Shown one piece after another: positions 32,827 to 48,188 of a stretch of 64,000 nt of DNA (the first letter of the stretch is position 1; the number at the start of each line of letters is the position of its first letter). The notes beneath the pieces were generated by a model. The model saw only the letters and a program-made list of their open reading frames with translations. It was not told the origin of the DNA and made no database searches. This stretch comes from an uncultured bacterium. Lineage in GTDB: Bacteria > Patescibacteriota > Microgenomatia > UBA1400 > MFAQ01. Made by a program: the position numbers and the translations under genes. The stretch covers positions 39,502 to 103,501 of the forward strand of contig CAXBYW010000002.1 in the NCBI GenBank assembly GCA_963980225.1, in the 5' to 3' direction.

Positions 32827-33456
32827 TCAGCCTATCTTTGGAGGTAGAGGTTTTTGAGTGAGGAAGTTTTCGATAAACTGGGGGGTGATTTCGGCTGGAG
32901 TGTTTGAAAAAGACGTTGGGAAACATTCTATCCAGAGTTCAAGGTGTTGTTGGAGTTTTTCTTGTAGGTTTTTTTGGGCACCAGATAGGTTTTGAACCTG
33001 GGATCTTTCTTTTTTGTACTTAACGGTGAGTTGAGTAGGAAGGTGAGTTAGACGGATGGCTGTTGCAAGTTTGTTTATATTTTGTCCACCTGGGCCTTGT
33101 TTACTAGCAAACCTTTTTGTTTCAACATTTTTTTGCATCTCTTTTGTGATGTCTATCTGTCCTCGTATTACGTTTTCTTGTAGCCATTGAGCGTAATTTA
33201 GGATACTGAGCTGTCTTTGATGAGGATGTTTGAAGCTTTCGTTGGAAAAGTTAAGTTGTAGTTGTTTGTATAGGATGAGTTTAGCCTTGTAGTGTCTGAG
33301 CTTTTGTTGATGTTGGTCTGTTTTCTTATGGCTGGTAAGAGTAGATCTGCCTGGTTTCTTGTTACCGCCAGTTTTATTTCTTCCCGCTTCTTGGTCCAGT
33401 TTGTCCTCATAATCGTCGGCAATCTTGGCTAGAGATGGGGGAAGCTCGTCTTTCAT
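32827..33456 (-). CDS. truncated class-I release-factor paralog (GGQ domain only)
   Basis: GPGGQNINKLATAIRLTHLPTQLTV...ERSQVQN is near-identical in pattern to the RF1 GGQ domain at 39756-40649. Lacks the codon-recognition (PxT/SPF) domain and the C-terminal RTYNFPQ segment. N-terminal 100 aa are low-complexity. Confidence 0.5.
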   Translation of the reverse strand: MKDELPPSLAKIADDYEDKLDQEAGRNKTGGNKKPGRSTLTSHKKTDQHQQKLRHYKAKLILYKQLQLNFSNESFKHPHQRQLSILNYAQWLQENVIRGQIDITKEMQKNVETKRFASKQGPGGQNINKLATAIRLTHLPTQLTVKYKKERSQVQNLSGAQKNLQEKLQQHLELWIECFPTSFSNTPAEITPQFIENFLTQKPLPPKIG

Positions 33457-38638: not shown

Positions 38639-39766
38639 ATGAAGAATTTCTTGATAGGACTAATGGTTTCGGTGATTGTACTTTTTTCTGCATTTGGAGG
38701 AGCCTTAGCAGACAGACTGTTTGTTATTAAGCCTTTGGATAAAATTTTTAAAAGAAGTGAGGTTGTGGTGGAAGAAAAGGTAAAAATACTAAGTGAGGAT
38801 GGTGGAGTAGTTGAAGTGGTAGAGAGAGTAAGTCCAGCGGTAGTGACGGTAGCGGTCATAGGCCAGACCCAAGGAAGAATAGTATTTGATGCTTTTGAGT
38901 TTTTTGGATTTAGACAAGAAGAACCGGAGATCGTACAACAAGATATTGGTTCTGGGTTTGTAGTCGATGGCCAAGAAGGGGTGGTGGTAACTAACAAGCA
39001 TGTAGTAGCTAGAGATGGAGTGAAGTATGTGGTGATTGATAAAGAAGGAGAGGAGTATGAGGTCAAGGATTTGTATAGGGACCCAGTGAATGACTTAGCG
39101 ATACTAAAGATTGAGGCTGAAAAGAGTTTGGAGGCAATTACGCTGGGTGATTCTGACCTTTTAAAGGTGGGCCAGAGAGTAATAGCTATTGGTACAGCTT
39201 TGGGAGAGTTTAGACACACAGTGACTACAGGGGTGATTTCTGGTTTGGGTAGGGGAATAAGTGCGGGTAATGGTTCCTTAGGGAGTCTTGAGAAAATTGA
39301 TGATGTCATCCAGACAGATGCCGCTATTAACCCTGGAAATTCTGGAGGACCTTTGCTTGATATAAATGGTCGGGTAATAGGAGTAAATGTAGCTGTGGCT
39401 GGTGGGGGAGAAAATATTGGTTTTGCTATTCCAATTAATGTAGTTAGGGAATCACTTGATAACTTTAAGGAGACAGGAAGCTTTGATAGGGTACAGTTGG
39501 GGGTGAAGTACAGGATGATAGATAAAGATGTGGCTTTACTGAATGATGTGCCTGCAGGAGCTTACATTGTGGAGGTGATGGAGGATTCAGTAGCAGCAAA
39601 AAATGGAGTTTTGGTAGGAGATATCATTATCAAACTTGAAAATGAAGGAGTAGTTGAAGTAGATGGTGGCCTGGCTGGTTTAATAGGTAAGTTGAAGGTG
39701 GGAGAAAATATTAAGATTGAATTATGGAGAAATGGTCAAATTTTGGTCCTAAATATTAAGCTTTAA
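38639..39766 (+). CDS. htrA: HtrA/DegP-family trypsin-like serine protease with PDZ domain
   Basis: N-terminal TM. TNKHVV (His), DLAILK (Asp), GNSGGPLLDINGRVIGVN (Ser) catalytic triad motifs. C-terminal PDZ. Confidence 0.85.
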   Translation: MKNFLIGLMVSVIVLFSAFGGALADRLFVIKPLDKIFKRSEVVVEEKVKILSEDGGVVEVVERVSPAVVTVAVIGQTQGRIVFDAFEFFGFRQEEPEIVQQDIGSGFVVDGQEGVVVTNKHVVARDGVKYVVIDKEGEEYEVKDLYRDPVNDLAILKIEAEKSLEAITLGDSDLLKVGQRVIAIGTALGEFRHTVTTGVISGLGRGISAGNGSLGSLEKIDDVIQTDAAINPGNSGGPLLDINGRVIGVNVAVAGGGENIGFAIPINVVRESLDNFKETGSFDRVQLGVKYRMIDKDVALLNDVPAGAYIVEVMEDSVAAKNGVLVGDIIIKLENEGVVEVDGGLAGLIGKLKVGENIKIELWRNGQILVLNIKL

Positions 39767-40649
39767 GGACTTTTTCTAGTTGACCTTCCATGACTTCTTT
39801 TAGGTTGTGCCAGCTTTTGTTTAGCCTGTGGTCGGTGAGTCTATTCTGGGGAAAGTTGTAGGTTTTTATCTTTTCTGATCTCATACCTCTACCTACGGCT
39901 TCTGATCTGGTGGCTTCGATTTCTTTTAGCTTTTCTTCTTCTTGCTGTTGCCAGAGTTTTGATCGCAGCATGTCTAAGGCTATTTCTTTGTTTTGAACTT
40001 GAGACCTTTCTTGACGAACAGATACAGTCATCTGGGTAGGTTTGTGGGTAAGACGAACAGCAGTGTTGACCTTGTTTACATTTTGTCCACCTGGTCCACC
40101 GGCTGTAGTGAAAGCCCATTCTAAGTCTGATAACTTGAGTTGGACTAAGTCCTTTTTAATTTCTGGTAAAACGGTTACTGTGGCAGTAGAGGTGTGGATT
40201 CTACCTTGTGACTCTGTGGCGGGGACTCTTTGGACTCTATGGACCCCAGCTTCATTTTTGAAGGTTTCAAAGCAACCTAGGGGCCAGTCAGAGCTGTTGG
40301 CTTTTTTGAGCTTGATTGTACTAGTGTCGATTTCTTCTATTTTGAAGTTATGGTTATTAGCAAATCTTACATACATTCGTAGTAGGTCTTGCGCAAAGAT
40401 TTTGGCTTCATCACCACCAGCAGCAGCTCTTATCTCTATGACGACTGGGGCATTTTTGGGAACTTGTGAAACTTTTTCTTTCTGTTTTTCTACCTGTTGG
40501 CCAGCTTTTTCTAGTTGTTTTATCTGATCTTGAAGTTTTTTGATTTCTTCTTTGGCTAGGGGACCGAGTTCAGGATCATTTACCAGGTCCTGGTGAGATT
40601 TGACTTTGTTTTGGAGGCGATCTATTTCTGGTTTAAGAGAGTTGTTCAT
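39756..40649 (-). CDS. prfA: peptide chain release factor 1 (N-terminally short, 297 aa)
   Basis: RVPATE (PxT tripeptide anticodon motif, RF1-type). GGQ ([12 protein letters not shown]). C-terminal [14 protein letters not shown]. Confidence 0.85.
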
Positions 40650-40939
40650 TTTCCGACTGGGGTGACGATAAGCATGTCTTTTAAAGACTTAGCTGGTCCC
40701 TGATCGTCACTTTTAGCCTTAGTTTTCTTTTTATACTTACCAGCAGCTTTTCTCTTGGCTAAGAATTTATCTACTCTACCTAGGGTATCTATATATTTCA
40801 TCTCTCCTGTGTAGAAAGGGTGGCATTTTGAGCAGATTTCAACTTGGATCTCTTTAGCGGTAGAACCTGTTTCTATTGTGGCTCCACAGGCACAGTTAAT
40901 GGTCATTTTATGGTATTCAGGATGTATTTTGGCTTTCAT
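40646..40939 (-). CDS. rpmE: 50S ribosomal protein L31 with long basic C-terminal extension
   Basis: [19 protein letters not shown]...[10 protein letters not shown] zinc-ribbon L31 signature. Confidence 0.85.
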
Positions 40940-41003
40940 ACAGAGGCTATTTTAACATAAAGATGATTTACACACTAGTAGTTTGTCGATTTTGAAGGTA
41001 AGT

Positions 41004-41032
41004 TTGACAGAAATACGGTCTTGTAGTATATT
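41004..41032 (+). promoter_or_regulatory. sigma70-type promoter of tRNA-like/ncRNA unit 1
   Basis: TTGACA (41004-41009), 17-nt spacer, TATATT (41027-41032). The CTTGTAGTATATTGAT block is repeated at unit 2. Confidence 0.6.
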
Positions 41033-41166
41033 GATGGAGTCATGTGTGAATTGGCAAACCTCCTTTTATTGAAGCCGTGTTGACACTTAGCTTCCAAGCT
41101 AGATAAATTTATTTGCCTCAATTTATCTAGCCGCACTTATTGCACATTTATTTGTATTTGGTTGAT

Positions 41167-41239
41167 GCGGGATTAGCTTAGTTGGCAGAGCACTTTCCTG
41201 CTCGGGAAGAGGTCACAGGTTCGAGTCCTGTATCCTGCT
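41167..41239 (+). tRNA. tRNA-like element 1 (class I cloverleaf; anticodon loop CUGCUCG lacks purine-37; identity unclear)
   Basis: 7-bp acceptor GCGGGAT/ATCCTGC. D-arm TAGCTTAGTTGGCAGAGC. Canonical T-arm ACAGG-TTCGAGT-CCTGT. Anticodon stem CTTTC/GGAAG with loop CTGCTCG (anticodon would be GCU, but the short variable arm is incompatible with tRNA-Ser). Confidence 0.5.
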
Positions 41240-41577
41240 TTTTAAAGGAGGCATAATCTCCTTTAAAAAATGATATAGGTAAGTGTCTAAGGTTTGATTT
41301 GAGATGAGTCAGATTTTGGCCTCCAACTTACCTAACCCTGATCTTGTCGTCTGAGGATAGATGTAGATACTGTCAATAGACAGTAATTTGCAGATGGGAT
41401 GTCCCACCGAAGACGACAAAACAACCAACAAGGAATGAAAACATATAACGCCGTAGTTTTCACTCCTTGATCGATCAAGGAAGTTCCTCGGTAGGATGAA
41501 ACCTTGTTGGTTGTTAAAAACTTATCCGTGTAGGATTAAGACTCGATTCTGAGTTTTGAGCTTACACGGTTTTTTTT
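41240..41577 (+). ncRNA. structured noncoding RNA co-transcribed downstream of tRNA-like element 1, ending in intrinsic terminator (41526-41577)
   Basis: No ORF. Nested stems (ggtaagt/acttacc; ttgtcgtct/agacgacaa; aaccaacaagg/ccttgttggtt; tccttgatc/gatcaagga). Terminator ccgtgtag...cttacacgg plus T8. Confidence 0.45.
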
Positions 41578-41597: not shown

Positions 41598-41626
41598 TTG
41601 ACAGAGATAAAAGCTTGTAGTATATT
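41598..41626 (+). promoter_or_regulatory. sigma70-type promoter of tRNA-like/ncRNA unit 2
   Basis: TTGACA (41598-41603), 17-nt spacer, TATATT (41621-41626). Same CTTGTAGTATATTGAT block as unit 1. Confidence 0.6.
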
Positions 41627-41769
41627 GATCAAACTGACAGATGTCAGTTATAGGAGGAGATCGGTACCTCCCGAATTTGGTGGAAGAGTCACCGTAAACT
41701 TCTAAGTTGGATAACTATCCATGGAAGGTTATCCAACCGCACTTATTGCACATTTTTATTTTTTTAAAC

Positions 41770-41848
41770 GCGGGCTTAGCTCAGCTGGTAGAGCATTCCG
41801 GACATCACTGAAAGGAAAAGGTCACAGGTTCGAATCCTGTAGTCCGCT
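41770..41848 (+). tRNA. tRNA-like element 2 with enlarged, non-canonical anticodon arm (23 nt instead of 17)
   Basis: Acceptor GCGGGCT/AGTCCGC. D-arm TAGCTCAGCTGGTAGAGC. T-arm ACAGG-TTCGAAT-CCTGT. Region between D and variable arms is ttccggacatcactgaaaggaaa, which cannot form a 5-bp stem plus 7-nt loop. Confidence 0.4.
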
Positions 41849-42144
41849 TTAAAGAGGGTGGTTAATCTCTCTTTATAAGAGGTTGAATAGGTTGCTACAA
41901 CCTGATCACAAAACCTCGTCGTCTAAGAACGGTTTAAGTATGCTGCTTTACAAAGATTTACCAGCCTAAACCGCTAATGAGACAGTAGCTCTCAGCGAAG
42001 ACGACAACGACTAACGAGGAAGTGAGGCATCCACTTCATTGGATCAAGGAGTTTTCCGTTTGGGAATGAACCTTGTTAGTCGTTAAAAAATCATCTGGAT
42101 AAAAGTAAGGCTCGATTCTGAGTTCTGAAATTATCCAGTTTTTT
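41849..42144 (+). ncRNA. structured noncoding RNA paralog downstream of tRNA-like element 2, ending in intrinsic terminator (42095-42144)
   Basis: Paralogous to 41240-41577. Conserved blocks: tcgtcgtct...gaagacgacaa, ggatcaagga, gaaccttgtt. Compensatory stem changes (gactaacgagg/ccttgttagtc). Terminator ctggataa...ttatccag plus T6 with the same loop gctcgattctgagttctga. Confidence 0.45.
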
Positions 42145-42155
42145 ATGGGAAAAAA

Positions 42156-43058
42156 CTAACGTTTTTCTGCTATGTAAACACCGAAAATGATGATGGCAAT
42201 GGAGAATATGTTTAGTAAAGAGATTGATTCTGAGAGTAATAGTATGGCTGTTGGTACGGAGAAGATCGGTTGGAGGTAGGTGAAAAGAGAGGCTTCTGAT
42301 GCTTCGATTTTGTCTTGACCAATAAGATAGAGGGTAAGTCCTATGATAGAGCCAAAGACACCCATATAGACGATTGCGGCTGCAGGCCAGAAACCAGTTG
42401 CTAATTGAAAAGGCTGGCCAGATATTAGGGCGATAGCTCCAAAAGAAATTAAACCAACCCAGAAGCTTATGTGGGTGACCAACCATTTATTTATACCAAC
42501 GTAGTGCTTTTTAGCTAAAAGAAAGTAGGCGGCCATACATACGTTTTGGCCTAAGACTAATAGATTTCCGGTAACAGTGCCAGTAAAACCACTGTTTCTC
42601 ACTAATGGTTCACCAACTAAGAATAGAGTTCCAATTAAGGCTAATATAGTACCTTTAAGCTCATGCTTTTGTTCCTTTTCCTTGAAAAATAGGATGCCAC
42701 CCAAGATAACTAGGATAGGCCAGGTGATGGCGATAAGGGAGGACTCAATAGCTGAAGTTCGGTTTAATCCTTGATAGAGCAGGAAGAGAGCAAGGAAGGT
42801 GCCGAGAGCTTCTAAAGGAACTATTTTAAGTATGTTTTTTAGGTGAATCTGTTTTTTAAACTTAGAATCCTTAAGGAATAGATAAATGATGATCGGAAAA
42901 GAAAAGAGAGTGGCCAAAAAGAACCTACCAATCAAGAAACTGTTGGGAGTTAGACCTGCGTCGAAACCTTTCTTGACGATGGGCAGAGCTAAACCCCAGA
43001 CGAATGTGTTACCTAAAAGTGCTAGATAAGCAATCAGGCGGGTTTTTGTGAGTTTCAT
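42156..43058 (-). CDS. EamA/DMT-family transporter
   Basis: 10 TM helices in two repeated halves typical of drug/metabolite transporter (EamA) proteins. Confidence 0.7.
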   Translation of the reverse strand: MKLTKTRLIAYLALLGNTFVWGLALPIVKKGFDAGLTPNSFLIGRFFLATLFSFPIIIYLFLKDSKFKKQIHLKNILKIVPLEALGTFLALFLLYQGLNRTSAIESSLIAITWPILVILGGILFFKEKEQKHELKGTILALIGTLFLVGEPLVRNSGFTGTVTGNLLVLGQNVCMAAYFLLAKKHYVGINKWLVTHISFWVGLISFGAIALISGQPFQLATGFWPAAAIVYMGVFGSIIGLTLYLIGQDKIEASEASLFTYLQPIFSVPTAILLLSESISLLNIFSIAIIIFGVYIAEKR

Positions 43059-47950: not shown

Positions 47951-48104
47951 TTCTTTTTGCTCCCTTTCTTTTGTTGAAGAACTAGTTTTTTTGATATAGA
48001 GTGTCTATATCATTCAAGTTGGGAGATTATAGCATTATGAGATAAATATCACAAATTATGGGGCTCTTTAGATACACAAGACTAAGGTTTTTAAGCAGTA
48101 ATTG

Positions 48105-48188
48105 TGCCGCGGGAGGGGATCGAACCCTCATGGTGAAATCACCATTGGTTTTTGAGACCAACCTGTATACCAGTTCCAGCACCGCGGC
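48105..48188 (-). tRNA. tRNA-Leu (anticodon CAA), class II
   Basis: Reverse complement gives GCCGCGG acceptor, anticodon stem TTGGT/ACCAA with loop CTCAAAA, long variable arm TGGTGATTTCACCAT, T-arm GAGGG-TTCGATC-CCCTC. No encoded CCA. Confidence 0.8.

Follow-up and report, generated by a model that had tools for sequence, protein, structure and literature searches.

Two tandem non-coding units lie between rpmE and an EamA transporter gene

The stretch of DNA analysed here (64 kb, referred to as the window) comes from the genome of a member of the ultra-small Patescibacteria (Candidate Phyla Radiation), and its release factor has its closest named relatives among the Collierbacteria/Microgenomates, at ~61% identity. 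The genes flanking the locus of interest are rpmE-prfA, htrA, ctpA, hisS, a gene for an EamA transporter and dnaB. Between rpmE and the EamA gene are two tandem units of ~0.6 kb on the + strand (~41004-41577 and 41598-42144), here termed W1 and W2. Table 1 lists their features. Each unit is bracketed by a promoter and a terminator and has the same order of parts, namely a sigma-70 promoter, a leader of ~130 nt, a tRNA-shaped module, a hairpin, a structured 3' domain of ~300 nt and an intrinsic terminator. Both promoters are near-consensus for sigma-70 (TTGACA, a 17-nt spacer and TATATT, with 11 of 12 consensus positions matched), and the RNA of the units is G-rich, C-poor and highly structured.

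Table 1. Positions of the parts of the two units and their flanking genes in the window, and of second-type cloverleaves in two related loci (L025 and L019).
Feature	Position	Strand	Remarks
rpmE	40646-40939	-	
Promoter, unit 1	41004-41032	+	11/12 consensus match; CTTGTAGTATATTGAT common to unit 2
Leader, unit 1, variable 5' part	41039-41097	+	structured; sequence poorly conserved
Leader hairpin, unit 1	41098-41131	+	12-bp stem GCUAGAUAAAUU/AAUUUAUCUAGC, 10-nt loop
Single-stranded box, unit 1	41131-41149	+	CCGCACUUAUUGCACAUUU; family-wide core UUAUUGCACAUUU at 41137-41149
A/U-rich spacer, unit 1	41150-41166	+	last base is -1 of the tRNA-shaped module
tRNA-shaped module 1	41167-41239	+	73 nt; Rfam tRNA 56.1 bits; anticodon loop CUGCUCG, G3.U70, no long variable arm, no encoded CCA
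Trailing hairpin, unit 1	41240-41269	+	directly 3' of the discriminator base
3' domain, unit 1	41346-41577	+	stem GUCGUCU/AGACGAC 41346-41417; long helix AACAACCAACAAGG/CCUUGUUGGUUGUU 41420-41515
Terminator, unit 1	hairpin 41526-41569, T-run 41570-41577	+	
Promoter, unit 2	41598-41626	+	TTGACA, 17-nt spacer, TATATT
Leader hairpin, unit 2	41706-41737	+	GUUGGAUAAC...GUUAUCCAAC
Single-stranded box, unit 2	41737-41755	+	19-mer identical to unit 1; core 41743-41755
U-rich spacer, unit 2	41756-41769	+	UUAUUUUUUUAAAC, ends at -1
tRNA-shaped module 2	41770-41848	+	79 nt; anticodon loop expanded to ~14 nt; Rfam tRNA 51.4 bits
Trailing hairpin, unit 2	41850-41875	+	
3' domain, unit 2	41918-42144	+	stem 41918-42005; helix AACGACUAACGAGG/CCUUGUUAGUCGUU 42006-42084
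Terminator, unit 2	hairpin 42095-42138, T-run 42139-42144	+	
EamA gene	42156-43058	-	
Second-type cloverleaves, L025	3787-3859, 4312-4386	-	8-nt anticodon loops UUCUUAGG, UUACUAGA
Second-type cloverleaf, L019	9295-9371		short UAAU loop

On reading the sequences, small ORFs in the leader or 3' domain were judged not to be conserved, and unit 2 lacks an equivalent of the 53-aa ORF found on the - strand at 40975-41136. A Pfam scan of 30 window proteins returned only housekeeping genes, with no RNA-binding or regulatory partner nearby.

The two leaders share a hairpin and an identical 19-nt string

The original prediction, made from the window sequence, was that an inverted repeat with a conserved GATAA/TTATC core, followed by an invariant 18-mer, precedes each of two tRNA-like elements. 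Both copies were located where predicted, each ahead of such an element, and some of the details changed. Copy 1 has the repeat GCTAGATAAATT / AATTTATCTAGC (41098-41109 and 41120-41131), the 12-bp arms of which are 100% complementary; they enclose a loop of 10 nt, not the 13 nt initially given. In copy 2 the repeat GTTGGATAAC...GTTATCCAAC (41706-41737) is likewise present, with 12 nt between TTGGATAAC and GTTATCCAA in place of 14. The exactly shared string is real and is 19 nt long rather than 18 (CCGCACTTATTGCACATTT, 41131-41149 and 41737-41755); it has no further match in the 64-kb window at up to 3 mismatches, with none expected. The pattern GATAA-N-TTATC is by itself unremarkable, as it matches seven times in the window against an expectation of 1.8, and the five matches besides the two copies are unrelated to them.

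Identity of this kind could lack a function of its own and be the trace of a recent tandem duplication, or of a short direct repeat undergoing recombination or gene conversion, and the 19-mers do form direct repeats 606 bp apart. However, identity along the units is mosaic. W1 and W2 are 55% identical over 637 alignment columns, and their longest identical run is the 19-mer (19), ahead of runs in the promoter (16), the T-arm (15) and the 3' hairpin loop (14). A run of 19 or more arose in 53 of 20,000 shuffles of the match/mismatch columns, and the leader without the 19-mer is only 43% identical between the units. The string is thus not simply part of a duplicated segment of uniform identity, which had been named as an outcome that would undermine the prediction.

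The units occur in one clade and only in some of its members

Homologues of the release factor, together with a single metagenome pattern scan, led to the orthologous rpmE-EamA intervals. L013, L016 and L017, where RF1 is 89% identical to that of the window, have units, as do L019 and L020 (80%), L025 (78%), which has two (L025A and L025B), and L035 (74%), the contig of which stops inside the leader. No units lie at the rpmE-EamA locus of L014, L015 and L018 (82%), of L026-L030 (79-80%) and of the outgroup L036 (62%). At the syntenic locus the family is limited to one clade and is patchy there, and because the element is absent at this locus from several close relatives, the unit system is dispensable or mobile.

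In the adjacent RF1 gene, the window and its relatives agree at only 42-57% of four-fold synonymous sites, a level near saturation, and a conserved non-coding string is therefore under selection. Hairpin and core box recur in seven leaders beyond those of the window, so that the motif is not, as had been considered, missing from orthologous loci. The unit number varies among relatives (0, 1 or 2) and several assemblies break at the locus, both of which would suit duplication or recombination as the origin of the shared string. Core box and hairpin nonetheless persist in single-unit relatives with near-saturated synonymous sites, and together with the mosaic identity this makes an origin of that kind, with no function of the string itself, very improbable.

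Several contigs of relatives end 85-190 nt upstream of rpmE, protein P0012 lies on 12 contigs and L035 ends in the leader box. Repeated units seem to break assemblies, which suggests that unit counts in MAGs are probably underestimates.

Wider searches were also made. The exact 18-mer has 12 matches in 185,579 representative genomes, all attributable to chance, none being preceded by a hairpin or followed by a tRNA-like element. A metagenome scan for the core box plus a tRNA start gave 5 matches, among which only L025 is genuine, and two viral-contig scans gave none. When the units were compared with phage and plasmid collections by blastn, only generic tRNA similarity was found (tRNA-Ile, Ala, Met, Gln), and the idea that the unit body derives specifically from tRNA-Gly was dropped for this reason. 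In Rfam 15 only the tRNA family reaches its gathering threshold; the next match, SpF41, scores 21.5 bits against a threshold of 52 (E = 1.5), and at E <= 10 there is no match to T-box, tmRNA, Y RNA, ROOL/GOLLD or group I intron families. Full-text searches of the literature on tRNA-like RNAs in the Candidate Phyla Radiation/Patescibacteria found no description. The RNA family is narrowly distributed and apparently undescribed.

The leader hairpin is conserved as RNA structure

Eight complete leaders were aligned (W1, W2, L013, L016, L017, L019, L025A and L025B), with L035 added later as a ninth. Four features are kept in them: the promoter, the hairpin, a single-stranded box directly 3' of the hairpin, and a U-rich run of 7-17 nt, mostly AAY-ended, which is followed by G+1 of the cloverleaf. 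The stems differ in sequence, reading GCUAGGUGG, GCUAGGUGA, GUUAGAUAGG or GUUGGAUGAG, each with a matching partner. Over the eight leaders and 12 stem pairs, 94.8% of the 96 cells are paired, and 8 of the 12 pairs are altered on both sides in a compensatory manner, counts that partly reflect shared ancestry since the sample of nine leaders is small and some come from close relatives. The covariation score was reached by 0 of 500 shuffles, and slid controls pair at 24-43%. Unaided, RNAalifold returned the same helix and left the box unpaired; fold z-scores range from -2.2 to -5.0. A covariance model built from hairpin and box and run over 227 kb of sequence (the window and the related loci) has no matches other than these leaders, and it picks up the truncated L035 leader, on which it was not trained, with E = 2e-4, making this an independent ninth leader.

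These data bear directly on the two interpretations that the original prediction had offered, an operator for a dimeric DNA-binding protein and an RNA processing or recognition element. In the operator reading, a dimeric regulator would occupy the inverted repeat on duplex DNA, the 19-mer would offer a further site for protein binding, and the window copies, with their perfect 12-bp and near-perfect 16-bp palindromes containing GATAA/TTATC, would fit such a role. The GATAA/TTATC core is, however, not conserved: it holds for the window copies, GATAA is otherwise found only in L025A, and the other relatives carry GGTGG, GGTGA, GATAG or GATGA. What the relatives keep is pairing, not half-site sequence. 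In addition, G.U or U.G pairs occupy 12 of the 96 stem cells, and each of these would be a mismatch (A.C) if read from the other strand or as a DNA palindrome, so that the symmetry of the duplex is broken. Hairpin and box also lie at ~+60 to +130 from the predicted start site, ~60-130 nt downstream of the -10 box of the strong promoter, rather than over the promoter, and the neighbours are rpmE/prfA and EamA/hisS, with no regulator gene. The covariation pattern largely argues the operator away, and we regard it as scarcely credible. Since the half-sites are unconserved, the symmetry exists only in RNA, the position is unfit and there is no regulator gene, the leader motif is, on this comparative evidence, an RNA signal of the + strand and not a DNA operator. 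The other of the two interpretations is supported at the level of RNA by the compensatory stem, by G.U pairs that hold on the + strand only, and by the position downstream of the promoter and before G+1. The element is strand-specific, is under purifying selection and is tied to the first cloverleaf of every unit.

The box adjoining the hairpin is conserved as sequence

The consensus of the box is CUGGAA-UUAUU(UAUU)-GYACNUUU. Its core TTATTGCACATTT is exact in W1, W2, L013, L016, L017 and L025B and has near variants in the other two complete leaders, where, in RNA letters, UUAUUGCACAUUU becomes UUAUUGUACUUUU (L025A) and UUAUUUGUACCUUU (L019). The predicted invariance of the longer string accordingly holds inside the window but does not extend to relatives, which keep only TTATTGCACATTT (or TTATTGTACTTTT / TTATTTGTACCTTT). 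The CCGCAC part of the 19-mer is specific to the window, its place being taken in relatives by CUGGAA, CUGCAA or UUGGGA. The variant of the box tracks the type of cloverleaf downstream, with GCACAUUU accompanying GCGG-type modules in 6 of 6 cases. No consistent pairing partner for the box was found within the unit, nor consistent leader-trailer stalks.

In many base-pairing small RNAs the seed lies between a stable hairpin and a U-rich tail. The box occupies such a place and is the best-conserved unpaired segment of the leader, and the leader might then itself be a product, an sRNA of ~130 nt (hairpin plus U-rich 3' tail) freed by RNase P with the box as its seed. No site complementary to the box with up to 2 mismatches is present in the 64-kb window, though, and the 5' two-thirds of the leader is not conserved; we consider this reading improbable.

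Further candidates were rejected. An intrinsic terminator or attenuator at the leader hairpins was dismissed, as a terminator scan finds none and the U-run begins ~20 nt after the stem instead of 0-2 nt. A second promoter in the box, with TTGCAC as its -35 element, has by reading no -10 element at the right spacing, and the scan lists none. Consensus and spacing are by eye unfit for a DnaA box, a dif site or an integron attC, and GC skew does not change sign.

The tRNA-shaped modules keep the features of RNase P substrates and lack those of decoding tRNAs

In every complete unit a helix starts at G+1, 7-17 nt after the box, and closes a cloverleaf in which the acceptor, D and T arms are tRNA-like and the anticodon arm is variable. 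With G+1, an acceptor stem of 7 bp and, stacked with it, a T arm whose loop is of the GTTCRA type, the modules have the make-up of an RNase P-type substrate. ARAGORN and the Rfam tRNA model both match W1, W2, L013, L017 and L025B (48-64 bits), and the modules of L016 and L019 are called by ARAGORN only. That of L025A, at 102 nt, is missed by ARAGORN and folds as a four-way junction with enlarged arms.

The anticodon arms depart from those of tRNAs in several ways. W2 has a 14-nt loop, L017 a 13-bp stem and L025B a 5-nt loop. The loop (C/U)UGCUCG is kept in W1 (41167-41239), L013 (9418-9493) and L016 (1277-1352), over stems that differ by compensation (CUUUC/GGAAG, UUUUU/AAAAA and CUUUUU/AAAGAG). 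ARAGORN labels the modules with this loop Ser(GCT) or Ala(TGC), and the loop CUGCUCG has C37 and a 'Ser' anticodon without a long variable arm. No module combines a 7-nt loop, U33, a purine at position 37 and identity elements matching the anticodon. Because their loops are CUGCUCG with C37, 14 nt, 5 nt or 8 nt long, or are replaced by a 13-bp stem, the modules, judged by their sequences, cannot be decoding tRNAs, and labels such as 'tRNA-Ser', 'tRNA-Met' and 'tRNA-Ala' given to them by ARAGORN are misleading. Among the three (C/U)UGCUCG modules, the alanine identity pair G3.U70 is found in window module 1 only.

A second type of cloverleaf (acceptor GCCCUUG..., discriminator A) is also present in L019, L025A and L025B (Table 1). 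The anticodon loops UUCUUAGG and UUACUAGA of L025 contain UUA and CUA, which are complementary to the stop codons UAA and UAG, and these cloverleaves adjoin the RF1 gene.

The only ordinary tRNA of the window, tRNA-Leu (48104-48188), has a leader of ~10 nt without the hairpin/box motif. Group I introns are common in the tRNA genes of Patescibacteria (PMC13011429); insertion of such an intron was rejected for the modules, in which the cloverleaves are contiguous and for which Rfam gives no group I match (E <= 10).

Relation to known tRNA-shaped and leader RNAs

RNase P requires no upstream sequence box. Bacterial tRNA mimics include the YrlA Y RNAs, which are linked to rsr and end at the anticodon-stem side. 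A bacterial pseudo-tRNA, tRNAOther, has been described in Bacillus cereus (PMC3399842). The units resemble both of these in being chromosomal and in having a non-decoding tRNA shape that keeps the elbow and acceptor features and has an aberrant anticodon arm, and differ from them in the long leader with hairpin and box and in the 0.3-kb 3' domain. A tRNA-like module serves as a processing signal within a non-coding RNA in MALAT1/mascRNA (PMC8457004). As in mascRNA-type RNase P substrates, the modules have intact acceptor and T arms and a non-decoding anticodon arm inside a longer ncRNA, and, as in the leaders of RNase P substrates, leader and trailer structure flanks the module and the A/U-rich leader ends ...AAY before G+1. 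In contrast to mascRNA, the present family is bacterial and places its tRNA-shaped module at the front of the transcript; and in contrast to both mascRNA and ordinary pre-tRNAs, in which no such box is needed, a conserved box stands 7-17 nt upstream of the module, at whose G+1 cleavage is predicted. T-box leaders are likewise structured RNAs functionally tied to a tRNA shape, but they precede coding genes and bind tRNA in trans, and the unit leaders are without specifier/antiterminator architecture.

A second group of relevant systems is formed by the boxB-boxA antitermination signals of rRNA operon leaders, lambda nut sites and CRISPR-array leaders, on which a complex of Nus factors assembles (PMC7665894). 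By analogy, the leader motif could be a loading site for a processive antitermination or elongation factor, a counterpart of boxB-boxA (or of a LoaP-type leader hairpin), at which Nus-type factors would be recruited to RNA polymerase so that the structured, untranslated 0.5-kb RNA is completed. The layout agrees well: a loosely constrained hairpin stands beside a conserved single-stranded box of ~12-13 nt (here the hairpin is followed by a ~13-mer), and each transcription unit has the pair just once, within the leader of a long non-coding, structured transcript made from a strong promoter, with none before the second cloverleaf of L025A/L025B. There is also the precedent of boxA before untranslated CRISPR arrays (PMC7665894). 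The sequence agrees less well, as UUGCACAUUUAUU matches E. coli boxA UGCUCUUUAACAA by eye at 7 of 13 positions, a comparison with an E. coli sequence from which a phylum may drift (PMC7665894), and the box does not correspond to the boxA consensus GCUCUUUAACAA. Moreover, the box here is placed directly before a cloverleaf and its variants track the cloverleaf type (6/6 for GCACAUUU), and the need for antitermination is not obvious because the G-rich, C-poor and structured RNA of the units is a poor Rho substrate. We therefore hold antitermination, the main rival of the model below, to be unlikely, if less so than the leader acting as an sRNA. The window and the related loci examined carry no rRNA genes.

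A model for the leader signal

With moderate confidence, and from sequence comparison, we interpret the motif as a cis-acting RNA element in the 5' leader of lineage-specific, independently transcribed genes for tRNA-shaped ncRNAs. Our best guess is that it serves as a recognition or maturation signal on the leader of an RNase P-type substrate, with a predicted binding partner and a predicted 5' maturation step. Transcription would start at the near-consensus sigma-70 promoter, and ~60-110 nt on the nascent RNA would fold a hairpin of 12-14 bp whose sequence is free to vary. Directly after the hairpin would come the single-stranded box CUGGAA-UUAUUGCACAUUU, and then the U-rich run with its ...AAY end, leading to G+1 of a cloverleaf whose acceptor and T arms would form an RNase P-type substrate. 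The hairpin may insulate and anchor the leader, and the box may be read sequence-specifically by a protein or ribonuclease while the leader parts from the tRNA-shaped module. This maturation reading is preferred because it fits the constant place before the first cloverleaf, the AAY|G junction and the tracking of cloverleaf type by box variants. As RNase P does not depend on an upstream box, the strict conservation of 13 nt would not be explained by RNase P alone.

A more far-reaching proposal, which we advance tentatively and think rather doubtful as a whole, though less so than antitermination of the known type, is that the units, of ~0.55 kb, constitute a new, strongly expressed class of modular ncRNAs peculiar to a Patescibacteria lineage, in which hairpin and UUAUUGCACAUUU box would serve to load a dedicated RNA-binding or elongation factor specific to that lineage. 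Hairpin-capped segments would then be punctuated by tRNA-shaped modules, one or two per unit, and the leader signal would be of a new type and not a variant of boxA or of an RNase site.

The tiny genomes of Patescibacteria can spare little DNA for anything non-essential. This lineage nonetheless retains a 0.5-kb non-coding gene, at times in two copies, that has a consensus promoter, non-decoding modules and a leader signal under purifying selection. If the box is a loading site for a processing or elongation factor, it would help in studying how RNA matures and transcription is controlled in bacteria that resist cultivation, and annotation would gain a new RNA family.

Other features of the units and their neighbourhood

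The loops of the two terminator hairpins (41526-41569 and 42095-42138) carry a 14-nt string kept between the units, CTCGATTCTGAGTT, which by eye resembles a shortened T-arm, and the start of the 3' domain, UCGUCUAA, is like the D-arm of the second-type cloverleaf in L025B. These likenesses suggest that the 3' domain may have arisen by remodelling of a second tRNA-shaped module.

GC skew on the + strand is extreme (0.33-0.53) over 1-40 kb of the window, irrespective of gene strand; it falls to 0.10-0.22 at 40-48 kb, where the ncRNA locus lies, and to ~0.02-0.09 at 58-64 kb, with its sign unchanged. Upstream of the rpmE start (40940-40965, - strand), all relatives conserve tgtgTTAAAATa followed by ~9 nt and then the ATG. 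From its sequence, tgtgTTAAAATa looks like an extended -10 box, so near the ATG that the rpmE mRNA would be leaderless or nearly so. RF1 of the clade is short, at 295-305 aa (39756-40649 in the window), and its PCRF match starts at profile position 44; a 209-aa protein with only the RF-1 (peptidyl-tRNA hydrolase) domain is encoded 6 kb from RF1 (32827-33456). In L014 (444-2192), the 82% relative without units, DnaB contains an intein (PF14890), and a gene for an NYN-domain protein and a tRNA-His lie upstream of hisS, where they replace a Glucodextran_B gene and a gene for a 213-aa protein without a Pfam match.
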